DNA of 54,183 bases, from positions 1-54,183 of IMG/VR virus record IMGVR_UViG_3300031949_000050. One strand, 5' to 3'. Below, piece after piece: positions 16,378 to 40,000 of this stretch. How positions within the stretch are numbered: the first letter of the stretch is position 1; every line of letters begins with the position of its first letter. This DNA comes from a virus (lineage: Duplodnaviria > Caudoviricetes). The notes under the pieces are model-generated. The model made no database searches and had not been told where the DNA came from. It saw only the letters and a program-made list of their open reading frames with translations. The position numbers were made by a program, and so were the translations under genes.

Positions 16378-18059
16378 ATGGCTACTGGAGCCTCAATCCT
16401 TTAGGGGCTCGTTAAACCCTCTCTGATCAAGCTGAACCCTGAGATTGGGAACAGACTGCAAGCAGGCACGAGCCGGGCAGCAGTAGAGACTAAGCGAGAG
16501 GGCACCGAAAGGTGATGCGATAGTCCGTCCTCTGGCGAAGGCGAAGCCGGAGAGGCTGGCGGAAACGACCAGCCCGGTGAGGTGAGCGTAGTCTCACAGG
16601 TAACAGCAGAGTCGAGGACATTAGCACAGAACTGAAGAACCTCTAAAAAAGGGTGGAGGTTTAAAACCCTCTCTGATTGACTTGGACCCTGAGATGGGAA
16701 CAAGGCGGAAGGCCAGTGGCCACCGTGACAGACTGAGCGAGAGGGCCGCCGCGAGGCGGATGCGACAGTCGGGTCTGCATCGAATTGGAAGATGCAGAGG
16801 TTGGCAGAAATGACCAACCCGCGCCGCAAGGCGAGGTAACAGACCCGGATGACCCTCCGGGCTCATTCGAAGAGCCTGTCAACAAGGAGGCCCCGTATCG
16901 GGCCGCCTTGAACCGCGTCGATCTGAAGATGGTCGAAGGGATCGCGAAGATTCCGCTCGGCCTGCACTCGGCGTGGAACGTCAGCATGACGTCGGACGTC
17001 GGGACGTTCAACAGCCCTATCGACCCCACTCGGGTGCAGGGCGAAGTCACGCCGGAGCTGTTCTACGGGTCGTTCCAGATCGGCGTGAAGACCAAGATGG
17101 CCGCGAAGTCCGGGAAGTCCACGTTCCATCAGGGTGGGACGATGGCGGACCGGATCGAGAAGACGGTGGAGGATTTGGGGAAGTACATCAACCGGGTGTA
17201 CGCGGGCAGCAACCGCGGCGCGCTCGGGGTGGTGGAGGCGGACGGCGCGAACACGATCACCTTGGCTCGCCCCATCGGGGCGATCCTCGTGAACGTGAAC
17301 ATGCGCATCGAGGTTCGGGACGCGCTGACCGCGGGCGCGATCCGGGACTCGCTGTCGAACCGCACGATCACGGCGCGCAACAAGGACACTCGGGTCATCA
17401 CGTACGGCGGTGCTAACCAGACCGCCGTGGCCGGGGACTTCGTGTTCATGGCCGGCTCCTACGGCCGGACGGTGAACACGCTCAACGACATCGTGGATGA
17501 CGGGACGACGGTGGATTCGATCTTCGGCCAGTCGCGCACGACCTACCCATCGCTGAAGGCGATCGTGCTCGGCAACGGCGGAACGCTGCGGAACCTGGAC
17601 GAGCAGCTCATCCTGAAGGCCATCGACGAGCCGCGGCGTGAGACCGGGAAGAAGATCACCCGCGTGCTCAGCAACTCGGGGCAGGCTCGCAAGTACGTGG
17701 AGTTCGTGGCTCCCGACCGGCGCTATCCGTTCGCGCCGGGGCAGAAGACGCCGCAGTACGGCATCGGCTACGAAGACGGCAGCCTGCCGATCGTGGCTCC
17801 TGGGGTTAACGCCAAGCTCGAGGTGGACTTCGACATCCCGACCAGGCAGATGTACTTCCTGGCCTGGGACGTGTTCGGGCTCTACCAGGCCATGGGCGTG
17901 GACTGGATCGACGACGACGCGCTGCTGAAGATGGTCCCCACGGACGGGGGCCACAAGGCGGGGTTCTTGGCGTACGTCGGTTGCGTGGAGAATCAGTTCT
18001 CCACGATGCTGGCGTGCAACTCCAAGCTGTCGGATCTTCGCGATCCGATCTACGACTGA
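16378..18059 (+). CDS. Major capsid protein, spliced: exons 16378-16393, 16612-16644 and 16852(or 16843)-18059; about 418-421 aa
   Basis: GAGGT RBS before ATG 16378. Joining the exons gives MATGAFEDISTELKNLYP(DDP)PGSFEEPVNKEAPY.... Size and position after the scaffold fit a capsid protein. Confidence 0.8.
16394..16611 (+). ncRNA. Group I self-splicing intron 1 (218 nt, no ORF)
   Basis: P1: exon GAGCCU with IGS GGGCUC (16405-16410), U-G pair at the splice site. P3: CCCUCUC (16417-23) with GAGAGGG (16496-502). P7: GACUA (16488-92) with UAGUC (16521-25). P8: CACC-GAAA-GGUG. P9 hairpins follow, and terminal G16611 restores the frame. Confidence 0.88.
16645..16851 (+). ncRNA. Group I self-splicing intron 2 (207 nt, or 198 nt if it ends at G16842; no ORF)
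   Basis: P1: exon AACCUCU with IGS GGAGGUU (16655-61), U-G pair. P10: AGGGU with 3' exon ACCCU. P3: CCCUCUC (16667-73) with GAGAGGG (16739-45). P7: GACUG (16731-35) with CAGUC (16766-70). P8: CCGCC-GCGA-GGCGG. Confidence 0.88.
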
Positions 18060-20849: not shown

Positions 20850-21536
20850 ATGAACGTCACGGAAATCATCGACCAGGTGATGCAGCGGACGGATGGGATC
20901 ACCCCCGCTGATGCCGACTATGCGGATCGACGTCAGAGGATCCTTGAGTATCTACGAGAAATCGTGGCCGAGGTCTGGTTCTACAGGCAATGGCGGTGGC
21001 GACGGCGCTCGGCGACGATCACCTTCCTGGCCAACACGCCAACCGCCCTCACCCCGACTGACTTTCTGGACATCGGTCCGTACGGGTCGCTGACGCGCTC
21101 CGATGGCGTGCAACTGGAGTGGGTCCCCGAGTCCAGGATCATCGTGAGCCGTAGGAGCGGGTTCACCACGGCGAGCCCCGAGTGTTACTCCGTCTTCGGC
21201 CAGGACGATGAGACGCCGTTCTTGCAGCTTCTTCAGATCGAGACGAACAACGTGGAGATCGCCCTGCAACTGGAGTACGAGACCACGGTGCCGACGCTGT
21301 TAGAGACGGATGCGGACACCATAGCGGAACTCAACAAGATCCCACAGGCGTACCATCAACTCGTTTTGGTCCCTGGGCTACGTTACAAGACGGAGGCCAG
21401 CAAGGGAGACGGCAAGAGCGCTCAGAGCCTTGCAGAGTACCAGCGCGGGCTGAAGTACATGACGGAGATCGAGCGCCGGGGCAAGGACACGCTTTTGCGG
21501 CTGCCGTCGTTCTTCGGTGAGGGCTGGTACCGATGA
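20850..21536 (+). CDS. Head-to-tail adaptor (podovirus tubular protein A-like)
   Basis: MNVTEIIDQV...ILEYL...WRWRR...PTDFLDI...IPQAYHQLVLV pattern, size and position. Confidence 0.7.
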   Translation: MNVTEIIDQVMQRTDGITPADADYADRRQRILEYLREIVAEVWFYRQWRWRRRSATITFLANTPTALTPTDFLDIGPYGSLTRSDGVQLEWVPESRIIVSRRSGFTTASPECYSVFGQDDETPFLQLLQIETNNVEIALQLEYETTVPTLLETDADTIAELNKIPQAYHQLVLVPGLRYKTEASKGDGKSAQSLAEYQRGLKYMTEIERRGKDTLLRLPSFFGEGWYR

Positions 21537-23233
21537 AGTGGACGCCGACCCCGGACAGTAAGCCGTTCACGTACCGGGTGGGGATGGGGGACATGCCTGG
21601 GTTCCGTGGCATGGACCGGGATTCCGATCCTGGGGCCGTGGCTCCAACGCGCTTTCATCTGCTACAGAATGCTCGCCTAGACGGGCCTCCGCAATCGAGG
21701 CGCGTGATCTGTCGTGGTGGCCAGAGCAAGCTGCACACTGCTGCTCTGAGCAAGACGCCGCGCGGGATCTTTGAGTTTGGGTTGGACCGTGGTGGGGACG
21801 GAGGGAGTTCCACAATCTCAATGCGACCAGACATCGTTCTCTTGGCTAATGCTCCTGCCGATGCGTCGTTCGGGTGCGGGTTTATGGCTGACGGCGTGAT
21901 CTTCGGGAACAACCCGCAAGGTGCGTTGAACCATGTCCCTGGCGATGTAGGCGCTGCGGCGGTACCAGGGTACGTCTCATTCGTCCCCTGTGCTGTTCAA
22001 GTGGAGCAGGGAGAATTTGACCGTACGGTGAGGCTTCAGCGGAAAGGCACGTCTCTGGACAAGGGAGGGGCCAAGGATCGGCTCGAGCGCGATCCGACGT
22101 TGGGGTTCCGGCGGAACACGGTAAGCTCTCGGGTCGGGTACTTCATGGCGGTCGGAATCACCTACGATGGTGCCACCGCAGGTGACCCGGCGTTCATCCG
22201 GATCTATCAAGTAAGCCCTTCGGACACCAGGGCCAACGAAAGAGGCGCGCTCTCTATCTCAGTGGCGGCACAGCTTGAGTTTACCGGGACGACACTTGCC
22301 GCCGGACAGGGCAGGTTCATCACCGACGTCATCCCGTACCGAGGTGGAATCCTTTTCGCGCTCAAGACCAAGACTGCGGCAAACGGTGACACCACTCAGG
22401 TTTGGAAGTGGAGCCCGGCGAACGGGTTCACGCTGTTGCGGTCCACGGCCACGTCCCTTGCTCACTGCTACCTTGCGGCGAGCTCGGATGCGGTGGTGGC
22501 GTTTCACACCACGGCTTTTGACGACGTGACCATGACGATTCCCACCTTGGCGACCAACATCGTGGAGTGGGCCTTCGACCCATTTACTAGCTGGCAGTCA
22601 ATCTCTCTCGACGCGGCCGTGGTGGACCGCTTCAGGGCCGAAAGCGCGTTCTTCTGGAGGAACAAGTTCTATTTCGGTGGCTCTGGCATAGAGACGGCCT
22701 ACGTGTTGCTGGACACAGAGGCGGACAACGCCCACACGGGACCAGCGATGTACGCATGGACGCTCGGCGCAGCCACGGCGAGCGTCCTCTCCGGAAGTTT
22801 CGTGAAGCCGTGGCCTACCACGCCGTGGGTTGGAAGCGGTCTGCAAGCGAGGTTCGGCCAGGGCTACACGGCATTCGCGGTGCTCGGGCGGTCTCTGTAT
22901 GCGCTCTACGAAGACTCCCCCCAGAACCCAGGCAGCGGATTCCAAGCGCTGTTCACTCGCTTCTGGGTGGCCAAGTACGATGGGACCACATTCACCACAC
23001 AGTTTGGGTATACGGGGGTGGGGAACTCATCTCCCGATGTCGCGACAATCCGCGCCATTGATCTGTTCTCGGGCCACGGCAGATTGTACGCAGTGGGGCA
23101 GCTATCAAGTTCCACTCTGCGCCTCGGAACTTCAGTGGTGGATAACGCTTCGAGTTGGGCTTTCACCGGTTCAGCCGGAAGTACGTTTGCGAGTTCCAAC
23201 ATAGGTCAGGGCCATTGCGGCCTGGTGTTCTAG
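21533..23233 (+). CDS. Beta-propeller-like tail protein with a nozzle-type N-terminus
   Basis: GFRGMDRDSDP...LQNARL...RGG N-terminus followed by aromatic beta-strand repeats. Confidence 0.6.
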   Translation: MKWTPTPDSKPFTYRVGMGDMPGFRGMDRDSDPGAVAPTRFHLLQNARLDGPPQSRRVICRGGQSKLHTAALSKTPRGIFEFGLDRGGDGGSSTISMRPDIVLLANAPADASFGCGFMADGVIFGNNPQGALNHVPGDVGAAAVPGYVSFVPCAVQVEQGEFDRTVRLQRKGTSLDKGGAKDRLERDPTLGFRRNTVSSRVGYFMAVGITYDGATAGDPAFIRIYQVSPSDTRANERGALSISVAAQLEFTGTTLAAGQGRFITDVIPYRGGILFALKTKTAANGDTTQVWKWSPANGFTLLRSTATSLAHCYLAASSDAVVAFHTTAFDDVTMTIPTLATNIVEWAFDPFTSWQSISLDAAVVDRFRAESAFFWRNKFYFGGSGIETAYVLLDTEADNAHTGPAMYAWTLGAATASVLSGSFVKPWPTTPWVGSGLQARFGQGYTAFAVLGRSLYALYEDSPQNPGSGFQALFTRFWVAKYDGTTFTTQFGYTGVGNSSPDVATIRAIDLFSGHGRLYAVGQLSSSTLRLGTSVVDNASSWAFTGSAGSTFASSNIGQGHCGLVF

Positions 23234-25012
23234 GTGCTCATCGTCCCGCAGCTAAGCTCGGACGGCACAAAGGCGCTGAGCCGGAAGCGCCTTGATGACG
23301 CCGCGTTCAGCGCGCTCACCATCCCCGTGGACGTCGCGGTCAGCGGCGGGCTACGTCCGTCCGGGCAAGAGATCCTCGGGCGGCTGTACATCGTCGGGCA
23401 CTACGTACCGGGGCTGGTGGTGGGCGAGGACGCAGACTCCCCGACGTGGCGGCTTGGGATAGAGCCTCCGGCTGTCGCCCCGACGCTGGCGGTGGACACC
23501 ACGCCTACCGGGGGTACGGGGCTAACCGGACCAGCGCTTGGGCGGTGGCGCTTCGCGCACAAGAGGGATGGCCGCCTGATCGCGGCGTCCCCCATGGGCC
23601 CGGTATCGAACCTGATCAACTTGGTGTCACAGGCTCGGAAATGGACCAACCAGCCGAAGAACGCTTCGGTGCGGGTCACGCATCTCCAGGCAATGCTCTC
23701 CCAGAACGGAGGGCTGTTCCGACTCGCATGGGAACTCGAGATTGGGGCCATGGGCTCGAGCTTCACCGAGACCGTGCCAACGCTTGCCCTGGGAGACGCG
23801 GCCGACGAAGATGCGCAGCCGATGGTCTCCGCTGAGATCATGGCGGTGTACGCGCAACGTGCTTGGTACGCTCGCTTCGGGAAGGACAAGTACCGGGTGG
23901 CGTTCTCGGCCCCCAACGACCCCGAGATCATAGACGGGTTCGTGGAGACGCTGGACCGCTCGCCGGTTGTCGGCCTCGGGCCGCGGAGTGACGAGCTCAT
24001 TCTGTTTGGCGCGCACTCCATGCAGGCCGTGCGGGGGTTCACCGCCTCAGACTTCGTGGTCCACTTCGTACACCATTCGATCGGAACGGTGTCTCATCAC
24101 GGGATCGACAACATTCACGATCAGCTCTGGTTCCCGTACCTTGACGGCGTGTACGTGTACAACGGGGGGATACCTTTCAACGCGGCAGAGGCTATAAAGC
24201 CGCTGTGGGAATCCGACTTCAAGGCCAACCCCACAGCCTACTACGATTCCATCGCGTATCACGACGACTTCAAGAGCATCTACAAACTGCTGGCGCCACG
24301 GACGGAATCGCCAAAGAGCGTGTGGTGGATCGGCAACTATCATGACTTCTACCGGGGGGAGGGCGAAGTCATGTGGATGGTGGATGCGCGGAACCGCGAC
24401 GACGTTCAGGGGCTCCTCTCGAGACAGATCGGGGACACGGTGGTTGTCTCTGCCACCGACAAGTTTGTGCGTAAAGAGGACGTGGCCACGAATGGCGATG
24501 ACGACGGGGACACGTACAACAAGCTGCTGATCGTCAGGCACGGCGTGAACTTCTTCGGGACCCCTGGCGGCATGAACGAGGAGGGCAAGTCCTATCCGTT
24601 GCTCTACACGTTCCTCGAGAGCGAGCTCACCGCGTGGCGTCTCAACGTGATTGCTGGGGACAACACGGGGATCGTTCAGGCGATGCGCCCGGACAACATC
24701 CTGGCTTGGTGGAAGGAAGACGTCGCCGCGAGCGCGCTCACCGAGACGCGGGACATCGGTGGGGTGGATCATGACCTGGTGTTCACGCCAAAGGACGCGC
24801 ACATCCACTATCCGCAGCGCGTGTCGGGAAACGGGCTGTTGATCGAAGTGCGAGCCACGGCACCCAAGGGCCTCGTGTACTACGGCTACGGCGGATGGTG
24901 GGTGCCGGGACCTACCGGAAGGCCGCCGGCAAGCGACGATCCAGAGGGTGGCGCTCCGGTGGGCGGCGGTGGAGGATTCGGGGACACGCCGCCTCCGTCA
25001 GAGGGGGAATGA
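23234..25012 (+). CDS. Tail nozzle / packaged-DNA stabilisation protein (P22 gp10 or T7 gp12-like)
   Basis: RVAFSAPNDPE, PVVGLG...LILFG, SIGTVSHHGI...LWFPYLDGVYVYNG propeller motifs; follows the adaptor. Confidence 0.7.
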   Translation: MLIVPQLSSDGTKALSRKRLDDAAFSALTIPVDVAVSGGLRPSGQEILGRLYIVGHYVPGLVVGEDADSPTWRLGIEPPAVAPTLAVDTTPTGGTGLTGPALGRWRFAHKRDGRLIAASPMGPVSNLINLVSQARKWTNQPKNASVRVTHLQAMLSQNGGLFRLAWELEIGAMGSSFTETVPTLALGDAADEDAQPMVSAEIMAVYAQRAWYARFGKDKYRVAFSAPNDPEIIDGFVETLDRSPVVGLGPRSDELILFGAHSMQAVRGFTASDFVVHFVHHSIGTVSHHGIDNIHDQLWFPYLDGVYVYNGGIPFNAAEAIKPLWESDFKANPTAYYDSIAYHDDFKSIYKLLAPRTESPKSVWWIGNYHDFYRGEGEVMWMVDARNRDDVQGLLSRQIGDTVVVSATDKFVRKEDVATNGDDDGDTYNKLLIVRHGVNFFGTPGGMNEEGKSYPLLYTFLESELTAWRLNVIAGDNTGIVQAMRPDNILAWWKEDVAASALTETRDIGGVDHDLVFTPKDAHIHYPQRVSGNGLLIEVRATAPKGLVYYGYGGWWVPGPTGRPPASDDPEGGAPVGGGGGFGDTPPPSEGE

Positions 25013-26519: not shown

Positions 26520-27290
26520 ATGAAGAGACTCGCCCTAGCGATTCTGGCCCTGGTTCTCTCGACGTCCGCCGCGGCTCAGGAGGACCGTACCGCACGGTGG
26601 ATGACCAAGTACGATCTGGACGCCAACACGTTCACGTACTGCGTGGTGCTTGGTAAGGACGGCAGCCCGTGGGGTGCGCCGATCGCGGGGCCGGCGCTCA
26701 TCGAAACCAGCGGCTCCAGCACGACCGTGACGGCGGTCACAGCGAGCTCGGGGCCATTCACTGAGTTGGCGGTCAAGGACATCATCATGGTCAAGCCCTC
26801 GCCAGCGAGCGAGGCGTGGAACGTGGTGACGATCACGGCCAAGGCTTCGGACGATTCGATCACGGTGGACACCGCCGTAGACTGGAGCGCCGGATCTGGC
26901 TTCTCGTTCCAGTACCTCAAGACGTCTTGCGGCACGGACGCCAACTCGGGATGGATCGACGTGTCCGGGTTCGTGTTCAAGACGATGCTGATGGAGTGGA
27001 ACCAGGGCGATCTGGACGCGCTGCAGGCGCGGTGGGAATGCCGAGCCTCAGCCATCGGATCGCAGCCCGTGGTGATCTATCCTGGGGAGAGCGATGGCTG
27101 CGGCGGTGGCACGCTCGCCAGCGGCGTGTGCGAATTCGCCACAGCCGGCGAGACGGCGCGACTGGGCATAGGCGACGAGTTCCCGTGGCTGGAATGCAGG
27201 ATCGGGGTGAGGTACAAGACGACCGATACCGCAGACACCGGGAGTAACCTTGAGTCCATCACGGCGTCGGTAACGGGGCGCACTCGGTGA
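26520..27290 (+). CDS. Signal-peptide-bearing beta-rich virion-like protein
   Basis: TAAGGAG RBS; MKRLALAILALVLSTSAAA-Q; fibre-like Thr/Ser stretch (TITAKASDDSITVD); several Cys. Confidence 0.7.
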   Translation: MKRLALAILALVLSTSAAAQEDRTARWMTKYDLDANTFTYCVVLGKDGSPWGAPIAGPALIETSGSSTTVTAVTASSGPFTELAVKDIIMVKPSPASEAWNVVTITAKASDDSITVDTAVDWSAGSGFSFQYLKTSCGTDANSGWIDVSGFVFKTMLMEWNQGDLDALQARWECRASAIGSQPVVIYPGESDGCGGGTLASGVCEFATAGETARLGIGDEFPWLECRIGVRYKTTDTADTGSNLESITASVTGRTR

Positions 27291-28075
27291 CCCTGCTCGC
27301 TCTGGCGTCCCTGCTGTTGCTCGAGGTCGCGGGCACCGGGGGAAGCGCGCCGAAGTCGGAGGGTGGCAACGCTCCGTCCTTGGCCAGCGCCGTCCTCGCC
27401 TGCTACAACTTCAACGAAGCCGGAGGAGACCGCTCTGACTCCGGTCCAAACGGTTTGAAGCTCACAGAGAATGGCACTGTGGGAGCGGTGAGCGGTGTAG
27501 TCGGAGATGCGGCGTCGTTCGATGGGATTGAGGCCAACTTCCTCGATCACGCTCACACCGATGTGCTGTCAAACATCTCTGACGACTTCGCGGTGACGGC
27601 GTGGGTGAACCTGTCGAACAAGGCCACGAACCAGTGCATAGCTGGGAAGTTCCATTCCGCGGGTGAGGCGATGAGCCCAGCGGAATGGACCCTCTGTTAC
27701 TTCCTGGGGCTTGGTGATCGCTTCGGGTTCCTCTTCTATCCGGTGTTCAACCTGTCGCCGTTCAGCGCCGTGTTGGCGGATACGTTTGGGGCGCCGGACG
27801 CCGCGACGTGGTACTTCCTCTATGGCGAGTGGGACAACGCGCGTGGCGTCATGTGCATCTCGGTGAACAACGGGCCAAAGGACTGCAAAATGTACCAGGC
27901 CCCGCTTGGACGTAGGTCTGTGGTCGCACCGTTCACCGTGGGGAAGATCGACCACAGCACGACGCCAAACCAGCTTTGGGGCTTCGTGGACGTTCTAGCG
28001 CTCTACCGTCGCAAGCTGAGCAGAACGGAGTTGGCGACGATGTACAACAGCGGAAATGGAGCGGCTTGCCCATGA
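27287..28075 (+). CDS. LamG/ConA-like domain protein with hydrophobic N-terminus
   Basis: CYNFNEAGG..DSGPNG..LT, FAVTAWVN, TWYFL, GFVDVLALYRRKLSRTELATMYNSG. Confidence 0.8.
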   Translation: MTLLALASLLLLEVAGTGGSAPKSEGGNAPSLASAVLACYNFNEAGGDRSDSGPNGLKLTENGTVGAVSGVVGDAASFDGIEANFLDHAHTDVLSNISDDFAVTAWVNLSNKATNQCIAGKFHSAGEAMSPAEWTLCYFLGLGDRFGFLFYPVFNLSPFSAVLADTFGAPDAATWYFLYGEWDNARGVMCISVNNGPKDCKMYQAPLGRRSVVAPFTVGKIDHSTTPNQLWGFVDVLALYRRKLSRTELATMYNSGNGAACP

Positions 28076-29313
28076 GAACCAGACTCACGTGTGCCCTCGT
28101 CGCGCTTGGCCTTGCTGCCTCCTCGGTTGAGGCTCGGGAGTTGGATCAGTCTCGGCTGAGGTCGCTCAAGGCGAAGCGCGACTACACATTGCTGCGCGGC
28201 CCGCGCGTGGCGTCCCTCGGCTACTACTATGCTGACCCGGACGTAGCGAAGGCGGGGAGCGGCGGCGGTGGCAGCGGCGCTTCGGCGTGGGGGGACATCA
28301 CTGGAACGCTCTCCGACCAGACGGACTTGCAGAGCGCACTCGACGCCAAGCCGGACTTGGGCGACCCAAATGTGTGGACCGGGGTGAACACGTTCGGAGC
28401 GGCTGCTGCGGCTGCCAACAGCATCGCGCTCAACGAGACGGCAGGTTGCATTACGTGGGAGGGGTTGACGGCCGACACCATCCAGGGACGGCTGTGCGTC
28501 ACCGACCCGACAGTCTCGGACAAGACGTGGACACTGCCTAACAGCACCGGCACCGTCGCGCTTGTCGAGGTTAACAACAGCTTCACGGTGGCCCAGACTC
28601 TGCAAACGGGGATCTTTGGGACGAACATCACACTCGTCGCCAACTCTGGACTGAACCTGAGCGCGACCAACGGTTTTGTGGACTGGGGAGCCACCATTGG
28701 CGGAATCAATGCGCGCGCTGCGCCGACGCCCGACACTCTGGAGTTCTACACGGGTACGGCCAGCGAAGCGATTCACGTGCTACAGCTCGGTGACGTGGGG
28801 TTCGATCACCAAAACGGGCCTTGCGGCACGAGCGTGTGTACCGATCCGACGTTCATCGTCCGCAGCCATAACCAGGCGACCGGCGAGTTCACTGCGACGC
28901 AGGCCGGGGCTCTCACCACCCGCATATCCAAGGCGCTGACGGAGGCGGGCGGGGCGGAGGTAGCCTTCCAGATCACTCTTGCCACGACCCAGATGACGGG
29001 CGGGGAGGTGTTCTACACCGTCCGGGCGACAGACGCGACTGATCTCGTGGCCCGCAACGGCTCGGTCAAGTTCGTGACGATTGACGCCGCCGGGGCTGTG
29101 ACCGCCACGCTGTCAGGTGCCAGCGAGGCTGCGGATGGTTCGGTCCTCATTGCTACCGGGGGCGCGACGCTCACGTATGCGATCACTGCCGACGTCGCCA
29201 CGGCCAACGTGTTCAAGCTCGCTTTCAACATCGACTCGTCGCTAGTGGTGTCTGCCGCGTCGATTGACTACCTGGTGATCCTGACTGGTCCGGGTGCAGT
29301 GACACCGCAGTAA
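28072..29313 (+). CDS. Tail fibre-like protein with signal peptide
   Basis: MRTRLTCALVALGLAASSVEA-R; WGDITGTLSDQTDLQSALDAK and TWTLPNSTGTVAL fibre motifs. Confidence 0.7.
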   Translation: MRTRLTCALVALGLAASSVEARELDQSRLRSLKAKRDYTLLRGPRVASLGYYYADPDVAKAGSGGGGSGASAWGDITGTLSDQTDLQSALDAKPDLGDPNVWTGVNTFGAAAAAANSIALNETAGCITWEGLTADTIQGRLCVTDPTVSDKTWTLPNSTGTVALVEVNNSFTVAQTLQTGIFGTNITLVANSGLNLSATNGFVDWGATIGGINARAAPTPDTLEFYTGTASEAIHVLQLGDVGFDHQNGPCGTSVCTDPTFIVRSHNQATGEFTATQAGALTTRISKALTEAGGAEVAFQITLATTQMTGGEVFYTVRATDATDLVARNGSVKFVTIDAAGAVTATLSGASEAADGSVLIATGGATLTYAITADVATANVFKLAFNIDSSLVVSAASIDYLVILTGPGAVTPQ

Positions 29314-29324
29314 TGGAGAAAGAA

Positions 29325-29774
29325 ATGAAGAAGCTTTTGTTCGTGGGACTGCTGCTGCTGGCTCCGATTGTCGAGGCCCAGGAGACGTACTCACTGTCAG
29401 CCACGGCGGCGCAGGTGACAGACTTGCAGGCCATAGTGCAGGCCAGCAACGAGAAAGTGTGCAACCGATTCGCTCTTGCGGATAGCTGCACTCAGGCCCA
29501 GGCGTGTACGGCGGCCGGCGCTCCGGGTGGGGCGAGTTGTACTGCGGCACAAGCGCGGTCTGTGAATGTCCGGGTGTTCCCGAACACCCAGGCAGGACGA
29601 GAGGAGTTCGTGACGTTCGTGGTTGCTGCTCCGCGATTCCAGGATCTTCGCGCCGGCATTCTCGGGCACAATAGAGAGAAGTTCTGCGCGTTCTGGGCAA
29701 CGGCGACTCGGGGGCAGAAAGACGGGATCTGCACGGCCGCCGGGCGTGCTGCCGGGTGTGAGCTGTGCCCGTAG
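29325..29774 (+). CDS. Secreted Cys-rich small protein
   Basis: GGAGA RBS; MKKLLFVGLLLLAPIVEA-Q; multiple Cys. Confidence 0.65.
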   Translation: MKKLLFVGLLLLAPIVEAQETYSLSATAAQVTDLQAIVQASNEKVCNRFALADSCTQAQACTAAGAPGGASCTAAQARSVNVRVFPNTQAGREEFVTFVVAAPRFQDLRAGILGHNREKFCAFWATATRGQKDGICTAAGRAAGCELCP

Positions 29775-30643
29775 TCAGAGCGGCGTGGCGAGTCTTGGCT
29801 GTGATGCTTCTGGCTGTCTCATTGCGCGCCGAGGCAGCAGACCCGCCAATCTTCATTCGACACAACAGAGCCACGGGAGAGGCAGAGCCGTACAAAGCAC
29901 CGATGGGGGCGTACCCGTTTGCTGGGCTGCCAACCTGCGACTCTAGTCTACAGGGCGAAATCGCGTGGGACACGACAGGGCTGCTCTGGCGAGTCTGTGA
30001 CACGAACGTCTGGCGCTTCCCCTCCCCGCTCACGACAAAGGGGGACATCCCGGTGTTCGACGGCGGGACATCGCAGCGTCTCCCGGTGGGGACCAATGGG
30101 CAGGTAGTGACCGCCGACTCGACAGAGACGCTCGGGGTCAAGTGGGCAGACGCACCCGGTGCCTCGTCTCTCCCGGCCGGGCTGATCGTGCTGACGCTGT
30201 CGAGTTGCCCGAGTGGGTTCAGTGAGGTGTCTTCTCTGGACGGGAAGTTCGTGCTTGGGACACTCGCGGCACACGCGGACGTCGGTACGACTGGCGGGGC
30301 GGACACTATCTCCACCGTACTCAACCACACTCACGTCACCGACGTGACCGACCCGGGCCACAACCATACCCAGAACTCTCACAACCACACGCAGGACGCC
30401 CACCAGCACGGCATGGCTGAGGGCACAACCGACGGCTCTGGGACGTTCATGGACAGATCGAATGCCGCCGCAGCGACGTCTGCTGTGACTGATCTCGCCA
30501 CGGCGACCAACCAGGCCGCCACCGCCACCAACCAGGCGAATACGACAGGCGTCACAGCATCGACGCAGAACCCGGCGGGGGGGGTCGCGACGATCGACAA
30601 TCGCCCCGCATTCGTCAAGGTGATCTTTTGTTCCAAGGACTGA
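29765..30643 (+). CDS. Tail fibre / collar-domain protein with signal peptide
   Basis: LTTKGDI...RLPVGTNGQVVTADS...GVKWA; collar-like LPAGLIV...CPSGF...LDGKFVLG; His-rich HTH/HNH repeats; DNRPAFVKVIFCSK tip. Confidence 0.8.
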   Translation: MPVVRAAWRVLAVMLLAVSLRAEAADPPIFIRHNRATGEAEPYKAPMGAYPFAGLPTCDSSLQGEIAWDTTGLLWRVCDTNVWRFPSPLTTKGDIPVFDGGTSQRLPVGTNGQVVTADSTETLGVKWADAPGASSLPAGLIVLTLSSCPSGFSEVSSLDGKFVLGTLAAHADVGTTGGADTISTVLNHTHVTDVTDPGHNHTQNSHNHTQDAHQHGMAEGTTDGSGTFMDRSNAAAATSAVTDLATATNQAATATNQANTTGVTASTQNPAGGVATIDNRPAFVKVIFCSKD

Positions 30644-30899
30644 GGCGGTGCGTTGCGGCAATTGCGTGGGCACAGGGCCGGTGAAGTCAAGTGTCCATGT
30701 CGCTGGTGCCAGAAGTGGCGGAAGGTGCAACTTGAGATGGCGCGACAGCGGATGACAGCAGATGAGCCGAGCAAAGGGCATAGCGGGCCTTGCTGTGCTT
30801 GTGTTGGGCGTCTCATGGCTGAGCGTGCTGACGCTAAAGAAGCGCGGGCCGCAAAGGCCGGGACGGCTCGTGGTGTCCTACGTCGTAAGGGAGATTGAC

Positions 30900-31277
30900 G
30901 TGAAGAAACTCAGCTTGTTCGCGCTCCTGGCAATGACGGCCACGGCCGAGGGCCAGGTAGGCGTGTTCGCGCATCTCACGTGGCAGGACAAGAGCAACAA
31001 CGAAGAGGGGTTTCGCGTCTACTCCAAGGCCGAGGGAGATCCGAGCTTCACGACGATGGCCACGCTGCCGGCGGACGCCACGTCCTTCGACTCCATCTTG
31101 CCGCTGAGCCCAGGCGTCACCTACTGCTGGGCGGTCGGCGCGTTCAACGCCGCGGGCGAGAACCTGTCTCAAGAGAAGTGTGAGAAGACGCCACCGCTAC
31201 CGGGCCCCACGGTCCCGACCGCTCCGGATGGGCTGGCGGTGACCTATACGCTCGAATCCCCGCCGCCGTCGCCATGA
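30900..31277 (+). CDS. Secreted fibronectin type III domain protein
   Basis: AAGGGAG RBS and signal peptide; LTWQDKSNNEEGFRVY...LSPGVTYCWAVGAFNAAGE. Confidence 0.8.
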   Translation: MKKLSLFALLAMTATAEGQVGVFAHLTWQDKSNNEEGFRVYSKAEGDPSFTTMATLPADATSFDSILPLSPGVTYCWAVGAFNAAGENLSQEKCEKTPPLPGPTVPTAPDGLAVTYTLESPPPSP

Positions 31278-31585
31278 CTTCGAAGCTGCTGCTGACCGCA
31301 AATGGAGTGGGGTTGGCGCTCTTGGCCCTGGTCCCCTCTACCGCCGATCGTTTTGAGGTCGTCTTCGGCGTCTTGGCCTCGGCGTGCGTGACGCTCGCCG
31401 GGGCGACGCTGTTCTTCATCCGAAAGTGGATGGCGGCACGAGAGGCATTCGAGTCCCAGGACTTGCAGTCTCATCACAAGATCGAGGAACGACTGTCGAG
31501 ACTGGAACGCGAGCTTGCGGTGATGCGAGAGACGCTTGAGCACGTGGCGTCAGGAATGGGGCGGATCGAGGCCAAGGTGTCATGA
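31274..31585 (+). CDS. Membrane protein with C-terminal coiled coil (holin-like)
   Basis: Two hydrophobic segments followed by ERLSRLE...MGRIEAKV. Confidence 0.5.
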   Translation: MTSKLLLTANGVGLALLALVPSTADRFEVVFGVLASACVTLAGATLFFIRKWMAAREAFESQDLQSHHKIEERLSRLERELAVMRETLEHVASGMGRIEAKVS

Positions 31586-31960: not shown

Positions 31961-34633
31961 GTGGCCGAAGCCGTGTCCACCGACGTCAAGGGCTATCCGG
32001 CGCTTGATTGGCGCGATGAGGACGTACGCGGGTGGGCCACTCGGCACCTTAACCCTCGGTCCAGGTTCCGCCGCTGGATCATGATCAATGCGGCCCAGAA
32101 TCTATGGTTCTATCTGGGCCGCCAGTGGTTGGCTCCGGTTCCGGACGTGAGGAATCAGCAGAACTTCGTCTATGCGTTCAGGGACGTGTACCGTCAGAGC
32201 TTCGCCTCGTACCCTCGCCCAGTGACGAACCTCATAGCGCCCGCCGTGGACAACGAGGTAGCTCGCCTCGGCCGTCGTGAGCTTGTTCCGGACACCCAGC
32301 CGCGGAAGAACGAGCCCAAGCTCGAGGCGGCGGCGCGGGCGGCCAGGAACATGATCCTCTGGGAGTTGGCCCAACAGGCGTGGCCGAACACGAGAGAGGA
32401 GATCAACTTCGAGCTCGTGATGAGCGGGACCGCTGTGATGCGCAGCTTCTGGGATGAGGTCACGACAGAACTCGTGCCGTTGGCCTCAGAGGGCGCGTGC
32501 TGCTGTCCCATGTGCAAGCGGGTGTTCGCCTCCGACATGATCCCCAGGGCGTTCGCCAACTTCGGGATGCCGGGGCTAGGAGAAGACGGCGGGCCGATGC
32601 CCATGATGCACGTCGAGACGACAGAGGAGGTGGACGCGGCCGAACACGCCGGATACCCAGAAGTCCGGATGAGGCACTGCCCGTTCTGCGAGCAGCAGAC
32701 GGAGTTGAAGCCGTACGAGATGTCCAAGGAGGAGGCTCGGGACGGGGAAGATCCGTTCGGTCGCCAGCTCGGGACCACGATCCCGAAGGGGAGCCCGCTG
32801 ATCGAGGCCGTTTCGATTCATGATCTGTATCCCGAGAATGGCGGGGTGAACGTGGATCCGTGGACGTGCTCCGTCTGGGCGCAGAGCACGGTGCGGCCAA
32901 TAGATTGGGTGGAGGCGCGCGCTCCAGAGCTCGCCGGCAAGATCGACCCTGACCCGGTGGCTGACCTGCGAAAGCAGCACCCGCTGCTGGGTGATCCGCT
33001 GTTCTCCGGCGCTGCGGTGATGAGCCTCTCGGCGATGGACGGGATCTTCGACTACCACGTGATGGTGAAGGAGATCCACATCGACCCGAAGCCGATCCCT
33101 GGGCTTGAGATGGGCGCTTCGTTCATGCTCATCGGTGACAAGCACATCATCAAGCGTCCGCTGTGCGTGGAGGTGGAGACAGAGAACGGTCCGAAGAAGG
33201 TCAAGCGGGTGAGGTACGGTGCGGCCCGGTATCGTCGGATCCCCAAGACGTTCTGGGGTCGTACCTTCGTGAGCGACCTGACTGGAGTCAACCGCCGGCT
33301 GAACCAGCTAGACTCGCAGGTGATAGACATCCGCGAGCGAGGCATCCCCACTCTGTACGTGCCGACCGGGACTGAACTCTACAAGCGCGACGAGGACGGC
33401 GGGGCGCTGCGCGTCGTAGAGTACGAATCGCAAAACCCGGCGTGGCATCCCAACGAGTCCGTTTTCAACGGCCAGCCCATGACGGGTAACTCTTACTTCA
33501 CGGAGCGTAACTCTGTCCTGAACGATGCGCAGCTTGTCGGAGCGCCGCAGGACATAGAGATCGGGAAGGCTCCCAAGGGACTGAAGACCACGAGCGGGCT
33601 CATGGTCCTCGGGGAGGAGGCGGCCCAGGATCGTGCCCCTCGGGAGCGGCAGTTGATCGAGATGTACGAATCGCTGTGGCAGCACTTCCTCGAGCTTCAG
33701 TGGGTGTTCCGCAAGGACGACGCAGAGTACCGCGTGCTCAACGTCCAGGGCAAGCGTGAGGTGAAGTCATTCAAGGACACGGACCTTCTGGGCGGCATCG
33801 AGGTGTCGATAGAGAAGCGCGCGGACTTCGACTCCAAGCTGTACCAGAAGGAGGCGACTGCGGAGGCGCTTGAGGCGCGTCTGTACCGGCTCGACAGCCA
33901 GGCGGCCATCGACAAGGTGCTGACGCTCATGGGCCTGCCGAAGGACGTCAACGAGGACTCGTCTCTGCAAGTGGACCGCGCCGAGGACGCATGGGGCGCG
34001 TTCTTGGAGACTGGCAGCGTGCCGGTGCTCGACTCCGGGCTGGTGGACCCATGGATCTGGTTCCAGATCCTAGGCAAGCGCTGGTTCTCTGACGAAGCAC
34101 AGGAGCTCCAGCGCAGCGTCAACTGGCCGGAGGTGACACGGGCGCTCGCCGGCTGGGAAGAGCGCATGGCCAAGATGCAGGGAGAAGACGACCGACTGCG
34201 TCCGGTCTACGGCAATGTGCCGCCTGAGCGGTGGGCCGAAACCTATGAGCAGGGCAAGGCGCTGTCCGAGCAGGCCCAGCAGGCGATGGCATCCGCAGCC
34301 GAAGCCGCGGGGCAGCCCGCGCCACAGACGCAGGAGTTCCCGGCACCGCCACAGCGGCCGTTCCTGCCGCGGCTGCTGCAAGACAAGGTGTACGCGGTCT
34401 GGGCCGGCTTGCTGTCCACGGCGCTTGAGGCGCTACAGAACATCCGGCCCATGGACGGCTTGCAGCCGGAGATACTCCAGAAGCACGACACGGCACAGCG
34501 GCTCGACAACCTGCTCAAGATGAGGGCCGCCATAGAGGCGTGCCGGATGACGGACCTTGAGCGGAAGAAGGCGATGGCGGGCGGCGGGGCTCCAGCGCCG
34601 GCTCCGGGCGGCGGCGCCCCAGGCGTGGCATAA
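31961..34633 (+). CDS. Portal protein (P22-like) with a zinc-ribbon insertion
   Basis: FYLGRQW, PVTNLIAPAV, SGTAVMRSFWD, FWGRTFVSDL...NRRLN, TSGLMVLGE pattern; CCCPMC...HCPFC insert. Confidence 0.8.
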   Translation: MAEAVSTDVKGYPALDWRDEDVRGWATRHLNPRSRFRRWIMINAAQNLWFYLGRQWLAPVPDVRNQQNFVYAFRDVYRQSFASYPRPVTNLIAPAVDNEVARLGRRELVPDTQPRKNEPKLEAAARAARNMILWELAQQAWPNTREEINFELVMSGTAVMRSFWDEVTTELVPLASEGACCCPMCKRVFASDMIPRAFANFGMPGLGEDGGPMPMMHVETTEEVDAAEHAGYPEVRMRHCPFCEQQTELKPYEMSKEEARDGEDPFGRQLGTTIPKGSPLIEAVSIHDLYPENGGVNVDPWTCSVWAQSTVRPIDWVEARAPELAGKIDPDPVADLRKQHPLLGDPLFSGAAVMSLSAMDGIFDYHVMVKEIHIDPKPIPGLEMGASFMLIGDKHIIKRPLCVEVETENGPKKVKRVRYGAARYRRIPKTFWGRTFVSDLTGVNRRLNQLDSQVIDIRERGIPTLYVPTGTELYKRDEDGGALRVVEYESQNPAWHPNESVFNGQPMTGNSYFTERNSVLNDAQLVGAPQDIEIGKAPKGLKTTSGLMVLGEEAAQDRAPRERQLIEMYESLWQHFLELQWVFRKDDAEYRVLNVQGKREVKSFKDTDLLGGIEVSIEKRADFDSKLYQKEATAEALEARLYRLDSQAAIDKVLTLMGLPKDVNEDSSLQVDRAEDAWGAFLETGSVPVLDSGLVDPWIWFQILGKRWFSDEAQELQRSVNWPEVTRALAGWEERMAKMQGEDDRLRPVYGNVPPERWAETYEQGKALSEQAQQAMASAAEAAGQPAPQTQEFPAPPQRPFLPRLLQDKVYAVWAGLLSTALEALQNIRPMDGLQPEILQKHDTAQRLDNLLKMRAAIEACRMTDLERKKAMAGGGAPAPAPGGGAPGVA

Positions 34634-35254: not shown

Positions 35255-35535
35255 TGACCGCTGCCGCGATAGCCAAGTCGAAAGAGCTTTTGGAGAAAGC
35301 CATTAGCCTACACTCGGCTCACATCGAAGGCGGCGAACCGACGAGTGACGCATCGCAGCGGAAGCTGATGGGCTACTTGGAAGGTGCAGAAGATGCACTG
35401 GAGGGCGACATGGAGTCAAACGGCGGGATGATAATGGGCAAGGGCATGAAAGCCACGAAAAAGAAGAAGTACGGGAAGACCAACGCCATGGAGGGGGCCA
35501 AGGCCCTGGCCAACCGCACCAAGGGGGCGTACTGA
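35251..35535 (+). CDS. Hypothetical protein
   Basis: Coupled to both neighbouring genes. Confidence 0.5.
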   Translation: MMTAAAIAKSKELLEKAISLHSAHIEGGEPTSDASQRKLMGYLEGAEDALEGDMESNGGMIMGKGMKATKKKKYGKTNAMEGAKALANRTKGAY

Positions 35536-35864
35536 TGGTGACGGCCCTGCAGGAGATAACGAGCGTGGCAACGGAGTGGCAGCCGACAGCGGACAAGATC
35601 ATCGTCCGCGTGGACCCGGCCAAGATCAAGACCGAGGGCGGAATCGAGATCCCTGAATCGCATCAGGAGCGGCCACGCACGGGAAGCGTCGTCGCGGTGG
35701 GGCCTGGTCGGATGCTGGAGAACGGCCATCTCAAGTTCGTGTCGATGAACGTGGGGGATCGCGTGCTGTTCGGGCCGTACGCCGGGATCGCCGTCGAGGA
35801 GCTCGGAGACGACTACCGGGTGCTCCGCGACGACGAAGTGATCCTGGTGCGCCGATCCTTCTAG
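35535..35864 (+). CDS. groES: Co-chaperonin GroES (Cpn10)
   Basis: QPTADKIIV...KTEGGIEIP...GSVVAVGPG...VGDRVLFGPYAG...YRVLRDDEVI. Confidence 0.92.
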   Translation: MVTALQEITSVATEWQPTADKIIVRVDPAKIKTEGGIEIPESHQERPRTGSVVAVGPGRMLENGHLKFVSMNVGDRVLFGPYAGIAVEELGDDYRVLRDDEVILVRRSF

Positions 35865-37090: not shown

Positions 37091-40000
37091 ATGGCCTCGG
37101 AAGACATCCTGGCGTCTCTGCGCCGGATGTATGAGGCCGAGTCCGGCGCGTCTCGGCCGTACGACCAACGGGAAGAAGCGGAGGGGAGCGCGTTCTCTAG
37201 CCTGGGCAGCGCGCTCGCGGCTGGCTTGCGTCTCCCGCTCGAGGCGCTCGAGCTTCCGGCTTCAGCGTTTGCCGCAGCCACTCGTGGAGTAGCACGGTTC
37301 GCGGGGCTGCCTGTCGCTGAGACGTCTACCCGCGGCGACCTGATGCGATCCGCCCTCGGCCTGGGCCCGGAAGAGGCAGAGGACAGCTACGGTAAGCGCC
37401 TGCTCGGGCTCGGCGTCAAGCTGACGACGGACATCGGGTTGGACCCCGCGACGTGGGCCGCCGCCGGCTTGGGGCAGGCGGCTACCGCCGGCCGGGCGGC
37501 CGAGGCAGGGTTGGCCGCTGCCGCGCGAGAGGGCGCAGTTCTGGTTCCTGACGCTCTGGCTGCGGCGGGGAAGACGATTCAGGAAGGCCACCGCGCAGGG
37601 CAGGCGCTCTCGGCGCTGTCCGCTGGATTCGGGGCCGGGATGGTCCCCGATGTACTCGAGGGCGTGCCACACGTCTACTCCAAACTCCGCGACGAGGGCA
37701 TGACCCCAGAGACGGCCGAGGAATTGGTAGGCACGGCCCTCGCAGGGGTTGGGGCCGCCGCCGGGCTGACACATGCAGCGCTTGGGCTGCGTCCACGTCC
37801 AGCCGCGAGGCCCGTCCCAGAGCCGGCACCCGCCGTGGAAGCGCCCGCGGTGATCCCCGGGCCGCCGCCCGCCACAGAGATAGCCGTGCCCAGGACGGCG
37901 GGGCTCGAGACGCTACCTCCTGTCCCGGCGGAAGCGGCGGCGGTCCCCGGGATGGAGACGGCGGTACGCCGTGCGGACATGGCGGCGCGGACGCAAGAAC
38001 TGCTACAGCGCGCTGATGCTGGCGCGGCTGGACTCCCGGAGGGCATGGCCAGGCCGGCGGTGCCACTGGCGGGGGAGATGGTGGCTCCACGCGTGGAAGC
38101 GGCCCCAGAGCCGGTGACGGTCCCTCGTGCGCTCATGGCCCCGGAGCCGTTGCCCCCCGTGGTGCCCTCCGAGACGCGCCTTGCTACAGAGGTTCCCCCA
38201 CAGCCCCCGGAATTGGCCCCGCCCTTGGCCGGCCGCGTGCCCACCGAGACGCTCCCGCCTGTTCCACTGCCGCCGCCAGTCCCAGAGGCTCCTGCGGCCA
38301 TTCCGCGCGAAGTGGAGGCTCAGGCGCTAAGGGAGCAGGCCGCTCGGACTATCCCACCGGAGCCGACAGAACCAACAGAACCGACGCCATCCCAACTCGC
38401 TCCAGCCTTTGCCACCGCAGAAACGCCATCCCCCGCCAAGCCACTCCGGGTGGAGATGGTAAAGGAAGCGTTCGGCCCGAAAGTTGAGCCGGTGGCGGTA
38501 GAGGGCGGCTTCGAGGTGCCCATCGGTGGTGGGCGCAAGATCACGGTGCGCGAGACGGGAGCGATCGAGTACGATCCGGCAGAGTTCGCGGCAGGCTACG
38601 GCCGAGAGAAGGGCGCAGCGGAGCGCATCGTAGGCAAGTACCAGCGACTCGGCCCGGACGGCATGATCTGGCTACTGAAAGAGGCCGGTGCTCCAGTGGT
38701 GCATCACGAGGCGTTCCACGCCGCGATGGACCTGGCGTTGAAGCCCAAGGAACGGCTGGCGGTGCTGAAGCGGTACGGCAGCGAGGAGGCGGCGGCCGAG
38801 GCTTATGGGAAGTGGGAGCCCGCGGTGCGCAACAGCGCGTTCTCGCGCATCCTCGGGTTCTTCCGGCGCGTGTATCGAAGCTTCCGCCCATCGTGGGAAA
38901 GCGCGTTCGAGGAGGTGCGGAGCGGCCGTGCGTTTGAGCGTGCTCCTGCGGCTGAACTTCCACTGCCATCTTATGCGGCAACAGGTGGGCCTCGTGAATT
39001 GTCTTTTGCTGGTTACCTGGACGAGAGAGGGATTGGGGATCCAGGCTTAGAACATGCTGCCTATGGTCCGTCTGGACAGGTTTCTAGGGGGACACGCCGG
39101 GCGTTCCTTGAGCGCAGGGAAGCCGAAACCACAGAATACTCCCAGGCGCAGGAAAACTATAGGCTGGCCGTAGATCGTGGAGAGATTGTTGATCCTACCG
39201 GGAGAGTCAAAGCCTCGGCACCATCGACCGTGATGGCAGCGATCCAAGAGGCAACACGTTTGAGAGAACGTGCGATTGAGTTGCGAGACTTGGCGGACCG
39301 CGGTATGAAGCCTAGGGCATACCGTGCGGAAGCAGACCGTTTGGATGCGAAAGCGCTACAGGTAGAAACTCAATCCCGTTACGCCACGGCTCCGACGGAG
39401 CCCGCTTCGGAGGCGGCTCCTGAGCCAATGGGCCGCAGAGTGCGTCCAGAGGAATCGCCTCGGGTGGAGATGAAGGTGGAGGATCTGCGGCGCATAGAGC
39501 AGCTCGGCAAGCTCGAGCCCGCAGCGCTGTCACGTGAGCAGGCACGGCGGTGGGAGGATCTGGACCCCGAGGTCAGGCAAGTGCTGAAGACGGTCCCAGA
39601 CGAGAAGCTGTATAACAAGGCGGTCAAGGGCCAGTTGAACGACGTCGAGGTGATGGCGCTTGACGCGCGGGTCAGGGACGCCGTGGAGCAGACGGAGAAC
39701 GCTCGCCTACGTCTGGAGCAGGCTAGAGTCGAGGGCAAGGACGTCGGACCGATCAACGCTGAGTTCTTGGAGGCGGCGCTCAAGGCGCAGGCGGTCAGGG
39801 CGGCGCGTGCGGCGCGGACAGACGTGGAGGCCGGGACGAAGCTGGCCCGCGCGCTGGCGGCCCGTGCTCGGGTCATGGAGGCGGGCAAGTCCGTCCCGAC
39901 CGACTTCTTGCGCAAGGTGTTCCGCGAGATCGAGGGCGTGACGGACGAGCAGGCTGCCGGGCTGCTGAGGATCCTGCAGGAGGATCCCGCCAAGCTCCCC

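Follow-up and report, generated by a model that had tools for sequence, protein, structure and literature searches.

The textbook view places the assembly of tailed-phage particles, with their fibres, in the cytoplasm. Exported phage proteins encoded next to tail genes are known, such as Llp and Cor of phage T5, and in the Inoviridae (pIII/pVIII) the receptor-binding protein of the virion has a Sec leader and acquires its fold and its disulfides in the periplasm before its incorporation into the particle. Lambda Lom is a further exported protein encoded beside tail genes, as stated in the available portion of PMC12309495. In this study, we analysed a block of seven genes (g1 to g7, positions 26520 to 31585) in the viral record IMGVR_UViG_3300031949_000050. 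The window, by which we mean the whole stretch of DNA analysed, is the entire assembly, a single contig of 54,183 bases with a uniform composition of 64% guanine plus cytosine (G+C), and its convincing genes all lie on the + strand, as judged from the GC content at the three codon positions. Its gene content is that of an uncultured tailed phage of podovirus type.

Six products of the block, g1 to g6, begin with leaders of the Sec type, and it is very probable from their sequences that all six fold outside the cytoplasm. We read the block as a distal receptor-binding-type appendage set that is made as Sec substrates and joins the particle after the onset of lysis, a reading to which we give an even chance. 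What we put forward is a set of tail-fibre modules rerouted through Sec, and the assembly pathway attached to it is hypothetical. No paper on Sec leaders of tailed-phage fibres came up in full-text searches of the literature; among the nearest printed topics were the sortase substrates of huge phages (bioRxiv 10.64898/2026.10.24.761521, in the portion available).

Leaders on the products of the block

The genes of the block are as follows, with a slash at the predicted cut and with counts of cysteine (Cys) for the mature proteins.

26520..27290, + strand: g1, 256 amino acids (aa); leader in residues 1-19, MKRLALAILALVLSTSAAA/Q; AAGGAG 7 nucleotides (nt) upstream; 6 Cys
27287..28075, + strand: g2, 262 aa, LamG-like; GTG start with a 4-nt overlap with g1; leader MTLLALASLLLLEVAG/T; 6 Cys
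28072..29313, + strand: g3, 413 aa, fibre-type; leader in residues 1-21, MRTRLTCALVALGLAASSVEA/R; 4 Cys
29325..29774, + strand: g4, 149 aa, orphan; leader in residues 1-18, MKKLLFVGLLLLAPIVEA/Q; 8 Cys
29765..30643, + strand: g5, 292 aa, collar-type tip with HxH repeats; leader in residues 1-24, MPVVRAAWRVLAVMLLAVSLRAEA/A; 4 Cys
30900..31277, + strand: g6, 125 aa, FN3-like; leader in residues 1-18, MKKLSLFALLAMTATAEG/Q; 2 Cys
31274..31585, + strand: g7, 103 aa, two transmembrane (TM) segments and a charged coiled C-terminus; start overlapping the g6 stop; flagged by the leader rule

Leaders were called by a rule that asks for an uncharged N-terminal window of 10 residues with a mean Kyte-Doolittle value of at least 2.2 and for small residues at positions -3 and -1. 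Of the 76 genes in the window, 14 are flagged, namely the six block genes, g7 (a putative holin-like protein or membrane partner) and seven others. The flagged genes are clustered: when the flags were shuffled 200,000 times, at least seven consecutive flagged genes came up in about 1e-4 of the trials and at least six in 7.8e-4. None was flagged among the large terminase (TerL), the major capsid protein (MCP), the SU10-type adaptor, the 566-, 592-, 890- and 401-aa proteins and the 1571-aa internal virion protein. A sequence-only reading of this DNA had quoted the six leaders and had proposed capsid, portal and adaptor proteins as controls; all six were found where it had placed them and are flagged, and the portal-like, capsid and adaptor proteins pass unflagged under the same heuristic.

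The predicted cleavage sites of g1 to g6 are AAA/Q, VAG/T, VEA/R, VEA/Q, AEA/A and AEG/Q. A hydrophobic h-region was found in all six leaders and a basic n-region in five, g2 being the one that lacks it, and g1 to g6 contain no hydrophobic window of 19 residues beyond the N-terminus. Neither a twin-arginine (RR) motif nor a lipobox (L-x-[GA]-C at the cut) was found in g1 to g6, and therefore Sec with signal peptidase I is the suggested route. Tat export was dropped as a candidate with the RR motif missing, the identity of the six products as lipoproteins was dropped with the lipobox missing, and an internal-membrane virus was dropped in view of a capsid and a terminase of the tailed-phage type.

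The leader-giving starts of g1, g4 and g6 are preceded by strong ribosome-binding sites, and the starts of g2, g3, g5 and g7 overlap the preceding stop codon. Independent gene calls give the same starts for g1, g2 and g3, and an Atlas record gives that of g4, whose open reading frame (ORF) opens at 29313 and whose leader-giving start is the second ATG, at 29325, behind GGAG. The block genes belong to the late tail operon, with stops and starts overlapping. A consensus-based scan, to which phage promoters outside such consensuses are invisible, found no promoter-like site in 26520-31585, a single terminator-like site inside g2 and fewer sites than in shuffles. It also found no promoter-like or convincing terminator-like site between the upstream tail genes and the block, and the composition of the block matches the remaining genome. 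As a side observation, g2 and g4, which are otherwise unrelated, both end in Cys-Pro (...GNGAACP, 28060-28075, and ...AAGCELCP, 29760-29774), and a g2 homologue (P0335) ends in ...RTCCPF.

Protein families, cysteines and the predicted fibre tip

Conservation of the leaders in homologues, which the sequence-only reading had named as a check, was observed to differ among the families. The g1 family holds 473 cluster representatives at an expectation value (E) of at most 1e-3 and 302 at E<=1e-10. In the best 149 of these 473 clusters, to which our counts for g1 homologues refer, 132 pass the strict leader rule; the other 17 mostly have visible leaders just under the rule or long n-regions, and six of them are extended at the N-terminus by about 120 residues. 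The Cys count is even in 142 of the 149 and is 4 or 6 in 127. Homologues of g5 pass the rule in 53 of 119 cases, nearly all of the closest ones included, and those of g3 in 21 of 62. As the g3 and g5 modules exist both with and without a leader, an internal control is possible within each family.

In both families the leader goes together with Cys. Leader-bearing g5 homologues have 1.47 Cys per 100 aa and leaderless ones 0.50 (p=2e-12), and the corresponding values in the g3 family are 1.41 and 0.37 (p=5e-8). An even, non-zero count of mature Cys was found in 46 of the 53 leader-bearing members of the g5 family against 16 of the 66 others; in the g3 family the numbers are 17 of 21 with a leader and 15 of 41 without. 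In the block itself the six counts (6, 6, 4, 8, 4 and 2) are all even. The collar domain of g5 has two near-invariant Cys, C148 (in CPSGF) and C289 (in VIFCSKD). This pair is present in 38 of the 53 leader-bearing homologues but in only 6 of the 66 others (p=7e-13), and four of these six exceptions have a visible leader that the rule overlooked. At the same sites, leaderless homologues have IPTGW, with Ile, and endings such as YMWKRTA, with no terminal Cys. The Cys pattern fits export to an oxidising compartment well and is unlike what is expected of a cytoplasmic anchor helix or a mis-called start.

The leaders of homologues (P0002-P0333; loci L003, L023 and L029) very often end in ...A/Q, and they come from contigs of 52-68% G+C. 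Leader ends of this type recall the 'Q-rule' of Bacteroidota.

The fibre nature of the block is clearest in g5, whose C-terminal 170 residues match the tail-fibre families phrog_8469 (E 1.1e-11) and phrog_1800 (E 2.6e-7). Precomputed annotations of its homologues include PF21939, PF07484 and PF12789; g5 itself gave no Pfam match, even at a whole-protein E limit of 5, a search in which the HMMER filters drop most matches above about 0.1. The g5 monomer model is poor, with a predicted local distance difference test (pLDDT) value of 61.8, which is in line with the expectation for an intertwined trimer. Modelled as a homotrimer, residues 125-292 scored 0.82, where the highest of three control scores was 0.00; there were about 800 intertwined contacts, at least 83% of them shared among runs, and the partner pLDDT was at least 84. 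In the calibration, the mark was reached by 20 of 30 proteins whose solved structures are pairs of one chain and by 1 of 23 proteins solved as single chains; this calibration used two copies and alignments of its own, and the pass of g5 may reflect likeness to solved fibre tips. The model predicts that the g5 tip is an intertwined trimer.

For the other products, g3 bears the widespread fibre motif WGDITGTLSDQTDLQ and matches the tail protein family phrog_25379 (E 2.2e-7). The LamG match of g2 (PF13385, E 0.0018) and the FN3 match of g6 (E 0.02-0.04) are both under the Pfam cut-off. Thus, among the domain labels given in the sequence-only reading, those of the collar/His tip and the fibre are borne out by PHROG matches, and those of LamG and FN3 fall below the cut-off. 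The g2 product has three homologues, all with precomputed PF13385 and one with a leader. For g4, the Atlas holds the 149-aa form and no usable relatives, and Pfam, PHROGs and NCBIfam gave no match. Searches of PDB sequences with the 566-aa and 592-aa proteins and with the g5 profile gave nothing usable, and the six block proteins have no paralogue among the leaderless proteins of the window, which is neutral with regard to docking.

The product of g1 has no match in Pfam, PHROGs or NCBIfam. Its model is confident (pLDDT 95.3, predicted template modelling score 0.88) and predicts a leader helix and then a jelly-roll, which holds an Ig-like insert at about residues 54-135. Foldseek gave weak matches, with template modelling scores of at most 0.27 in the PDB and at most 0.34 in BFVD, and these point to phage tail or fibre proteins. 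The top VIA-align match is XepA, the 'exported protein' of PBSX (PDB 6i56; Z 9.1, root-mean-square deviation (rmsd) 3.3, 104 residues aligned), at a Z level that is common without a true match. Next come YomS (Z 8.9, rmsd 3.8, 107 aligned), which like XepA is a lytic-cassette protein (of SPbeta and PBSX, respectively), a GOLD domain at Z 8.7 and, at Z 8.3, the cement protein of BPP-1, with many TNF/C1q-like jelly-rolls at Z 7-8, a level that the tool calls common. The modelled fold fits a trimer- or pentamer-forming appendage or decoration module, none in particular being specified.

True relatives of this phage were found in six viral contigs (L041-L046), with 31-41% identity in the portal-like protein and 33-61% in the capsid protein. 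They variously share the adaptor, GroES, the endolysin and the internal virion protein with the window, GroES being kept in L044 and L046. All six have g1 at 37-48% identity; it is conserved about like MCP and portal, and in all six it lies in the structural module, after the adaptor (L041, L042), after GroES (L044, L046) or after the endolysin (L043). Directly 3' of g1, L041, L042, L043 and L045 encode a differing leader-bearing protein of 273-858 aa with 6 Cys. Further downstream, L044 has a leader-bearing protein of 860 aa with 12 Cys; L045 encodes one more, with 705 aa and 10 Cys, and in L046 the contig ends. The order in L045 is a g1-like gene, three genes for leader-bearing proteins, two for small TM proteins, and the endolysin gene. 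Such an order is the classic layout of a constant piece, exchangeable recognition proteins and lysis genes. The nearest Atlas clusters of the g1 family are 89-100% viral, and a pattern scan of 185,579 species genomes gave no relative. This lineage has g1 among its core genes, and the g1 family looks virus-specific.

Possible docking on the particle or residence in the envelope

In the pathway that we propose, the unfolded chains would cross the inner membrane through Sec and the leader would be cut by signal peptidase I; the proteins would then fold and form disulfides in the periplasm, where the g5 tip would trimerise. These steps have good support. The later steps have about even odds: fibre-less particles would be built in the cytoplasm, would meet the periplasmic parts only once the holin opens the inner membrane, and would then receive them on the tail, with g1 as the constant piece and g2 to g6 as exchangeable recognition modules. 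A periplasmic pool could also mask receptors before docking. In biochemical terms it is nothing unusual for finished particles to receive recognition proteins late, as in the in-vitro addition of tailspikes to P22 heads. More tentatively, and with somewhat less than even confidence, we suggest that particles of this lineage, and of several unrelated uncultured ones, are completed in two compartments, with a head and tail core built in the cytoplasm and a receptor-binding set that is exported through Sec, cross-linked by the periplasmic disulfide machinery of the host and docked after holin action; the periplasmic pool could mask receptors in the latent period.

The trait was also found in other phages. 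Thirty-five viral contigs have the g5 tip as their sole common feature with the window; the tip gene is flagged in 17 of them, and a 36th contig has no ORF at the match. The six genes nearest to the tip are flagged in 53 of 194 cases and distant genes in 38 of 387 (odds ratio 3.5, p=1e-7); near and distant genes were called with the same permissive start rule, and greedy ORF picking mis-called some tip genes. Among the leader-bearing proteins from other loci, 15 of 17 have no PHROG match and 16 of 17 no Pfam match. Very large leader-bearing proteins of 832-1365 aa occupy the tail slot in L023 (7311-9809), L029 (6964-9888), L036 (1862-5959) and L044 (12818-15400); that of L029 has 974 aa, and that of L036 has 1365 aa and tail-fibre PHROG matches. 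The majority of these very large proteins gave no match in Pfam or PHROGs. Beyond the leader-bearing block, L029 encodes small TM proteins and, after them, the endolysin.

A precedent comes from two cultured Cellulophaga phages. In phi18:3 (NC_021794), gp085-087 all have leaders (MKNKITIIMILMSISFGYSQ, MKKTIYILSILLLTISGVSAQ and MKHTFSIVLFFILSIGLNAQ) and lie just 5' of small TM proteins and the endolysin. In the record they carry structural or tail-protein annotations 'based on experimental MS/MS proteomics analysis', that is, by tandem mass spectrometry, and none of the nine other proteins so annotated in the stretch has a leader. In phi10:1 (NC_021802), gp091-094 are all annotated by mass spectrometry according to the record and all four have leaders, gp094 being called a tail fibre; gp095 has a leader as well, and none of eight other structural proteins has one. 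By the annotation of these records, leader-bearing tail-slot proteins are found in the virion preparations of two cultured phages.

One alternative is that the hydrophobic N-termini are uncleaved cytoplasmic anchor helices or result from wrongly chosen starts, and we regard it as very unlikely. Several observations weigh against our reading at this point and speak for that alternative. The leader rule is a home-made, crude heuristic and no trained predictor; the leader of g2, with no basic n-region, is the weakest of the six; and the leaders of g5 and g6 hinge on non-ATG or internal starts. That of g5 requires the GTG at 29765, and the database call (P0001, 279 aa) begins 13 codons downstream. 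That of g6 requires an internal GTG at 30900, behind AAGGGAG, in an ORF that opens at the ATG at 30762. The stretch 30762-30899 looks coding (GC of 0.65, 0.46 and 0.74 at codon positions 1, 2 and 3), and this upstream extension of 138 bases would add another hydrophobic segment, giving a membrane-targeted N-terminus with either start. The strong ribosome-binding sites at the leader-giving starts of g1, g4 and g6 argue against mis-called starts, and hundreds of homologues repeat the n-h-c layout, small residues at -3 and -1 included. Moreover, a cytoplasmic anchor leaves the leader-tied Cys enrichment, the even counts and the Cys pair unexplained. A caution comes from phage Milano, in which virion disulfide networks are formed without export (PMC10811340, in the portion available), so that disulfides in virions can arise on another route. 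Because the leaders are canonical and conserved, the Cys enriched and even in number, and the Cys pair linked to the leader, export and oxidative folding are well supported. The sequence-only reading had gone on to propose that a receptor-binding apparatus is exported, folded oxidatively in the periplasm and added to particles at or after lysis, or displayed on the host surface. The sequence statistics agree with its export and oxidative folding, and nothing in the window speaks to particle addition or host display. Its premise that fibres normally have no signal peptides is consistent with the leaderless cultured-phage homologues seen here.

Where the exported proteins go is a separate matter, and their incorporation into virions is suggested by analogy only. 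They may never enter the particle and may instead be periplasmic or envelope binding proteins of the infected cell, which would mask or modify receptors and so give superinfection exclusion, keep progeny off debris or remodel the envelope; this we hold to be unlikely, though a serious possibility. The evidence for export applies to it equally. Leaderless g3 homologues start with a MADxKISDL-type N-terminal module that looks like the usual particle-binding end, and in the leader-bearing forms the leader replaces this module. Leaderless fibre-like or structural candidates are encoded elsewhere in the genome, at 42024-43601, and therefore the particle may be able to do without the exported set. 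XepA, the best though marginal fold match of g1, is an 'exported protein', and exported proteins adjoining tail genes are known, such as lambda Lom (PMC12309495, in the portion available). On the other side, g1 is core and is conserved about like MCP and portal, whereas exclusion genes are usually variable add-ons; the genome has no leaderless copy of the binding domains that could be mimicked; and in a diderm, a protein with no more than a Sec leader would stay in the periplasm, off the surface receptors. The leader-bearing forms of up to 1365 aa with tail-fibre PHROG matches look like real fibres, and the Cellulophaga precedent favours particles. It is also conceivable, but quite improbable, that the block consists of 'moron' genes like lambda lom and bor, that is, surface proteins of accessory or host-benefit function whose genes happen to have been inserted among the tail genes. 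The exported products, the location in the tail region, the orphan g4, the mere three homologues of g2 and the many other envelope-targeted products of the genome, four lipobox proteins included, would agree with this. They are set against the overlapping stops and starts along the block with no separate promoter-like or terminator-like signals, a composition equal to that of the genome, the membership of g1, g3 and g5 in large phage families with fibre modules, the recurrence of the same arrangement in relatives, and the lack of a Lom/Ail or lipoprotein family match in Pfam and NCBIfam. A role of the Sec-exported set in the virion is favoured because g1 is core, belongs to the structural module and always stands at the head of variable fibre-like genes with leaders, and because leader-bearing tail-position proteins of the Cellulophaga phages are annotated as detected by mass spectrometry. 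It is disfavoured by the leader-bearing forms that lack the N-terminal module, by the leaderless fibre candidates and by the collections searched, which contained no cultured relative or proteome of this lineage. Virion preparations can also include co-purifying envelope proteins, and the window and the late region of phi18:3, the one phage compared in this way, have no detectable sequence homology.

The genome around the block and the comparison with known systems

The other genes that characterise the window phage are listed below.

3743-4288, + strand: M15 endolysin, by family match
11030-12649, + strand: large terminase, by family match
15766-16344, + strand: HNH homing-type endonuclease (phrog_826, E 1e-39), between the scaffold-like and major head genes
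16785-18059, + strand: major head protein, by family match
20850-21536, + strand: SU10-type adaptor (PF24175, E 6.5e-13), a leaderless control
21533-23233 and 23234-25012, + strand: two large tail-position proteins, leaderless controls upstream of the block
31961-34633, + strand: portal-like protein, 890 aa, labelled by position
35535-35864, + strand: GroES (PF00166, E 2e-22), in the structural region
37091-41806, + strand: internal virion protein, 1571 aa, by family match
42351-43601, + strand: virion structural protein, 416 aa (phrog_1645, E 1e-88)
44780-45499, + strand: pentapeptide-repeat protein (PF00805, E 4e-36), among early genes

The 890-aa protein was called portal-like because its gene is located 3' of the terminase gene in the relatives; a scan of viral contigs with this protein alone gave no relative. 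The similarity to cultured phages is restricted to a distant terminase, with at most 41% identity. The product of 42351-43601 has an unusual spread over phage types, being common to the T4-like cyanophages S-RIM12 and S-RIM2 (35-37% identity) and the SAR116 podophage HMO-2011 (30%). Between the terminase and scaffold-like genes, the 197-aa product of 13278-13871 has a leader-like N-terminus (MTALLLLFLAAAGP) and gave no family match in the family-library searches. The contig bases 1-131 are 99.2% identical to the internal stretch 14063-14192, and the ORF at 46-453 is a paralogue of that at 13868-14413 (41% identity). Either a real duplication or a join made during assembly may account for this repeat.

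Lipobox-type leaders were observed in the products of 554-1573, 4544-5938 (from the internal Met 29), 6658-7230 and 8202-8588, with the ends LVAC/Q, LVGC/V, LAGC/K and MLAC/Q. Three of the seven flagged genes outside the block run (554, 6658 and 8202) are of this type, and the product of 4544-5938 is unflagged. Pro/Ser-rich linkers follow the lipobox leaders of the 554 and 6658 products, and the 339-aa product has 22 Cys. Together, the lipobox products and the block bring the envelope-targeted share of the proteome to about one fifth.

Two features of the gene content make a diderm host likely, namely the lipobox proteins and the endolysin, in which no wall-binding domain was detected. Scans of genome contigs with the g1 alignment and with GroES gave no relative, and the window contains no tRNA genes. 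A scan of genome contigs with the g5 alignment found four loci only, on contigs of metagenome-assembled genomes of Betaproteobacteria and Elusimicrobiota.

What appears new in this study is the g1 family, which looks conserved and virus-specific and heads the block, together with the leader-linked Cys pair seen in collar-domain sequences and the predicted g5 trimer. The g1 family is large and unnamed and now has a confident model. If the reading of a Sec-exported appendage set is true, tailed phages would have a second assembly compartment, and the export and disulfide machinery of the host would become host factors for infectivity. It would also explain why such fibres may fail in cytoplasmic expression, which concerns structural work and phage engineering. 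For annotation, the combination of a leader, paired Cys and a tail-slot position would mark receptor-binding genes in viral dark matter.

Compared with known systems, the block resembles several and coincides with none of them. Collar/HxH tips are of the T4 gp12/gp37 type. The leaderless fibres with such tips (PHROGs 8469 and 1800; PF07484, PF21939) align with the C-terminal 170 residues of g5; unlike them, g5 and its nearest relatives have a Sec leader in place of the long shaft or particle-binding end, and they have the Cys pair. Like Lom, Llp, Cor and XepA, the block products are leader-bearing or exported and their genes stand by tail-fibre and lysis genes. Unlike the Lom, Bor, Llp and Cor types, g1 to g6 have no lipobox, no beta-barrel and no match to these sequence families, and unlike these and XepA, g1 is a core gene of its lineage and not a variable add-on.

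The filamentous-phage pIII shares with the block products a Sec leader and periplasmic disulfide folding, which for the window proteins are predicted from their sequences. Filamentous phages assemble at the membrane and their pIII keeps a C-terminal anchor, whereas the window phage is tailed, with a terminase, an HK97-type capsid and an adaptor, and g1 to g6 have no C-terminal TM segment. The Cellulophaga phages differ from the window in their Bacteroidota host, low GC and few Cys (0-3 per leader-bearing protein). As in the window block, their leader genes stand in runs of 3-5 in the distal tail slot, their other structural proteins are leaderless, and after the leader genes come small TM proteins and the endolysin; phi18:3 also encodes GroES, in two genes, and giant virion proteins, as the window does.

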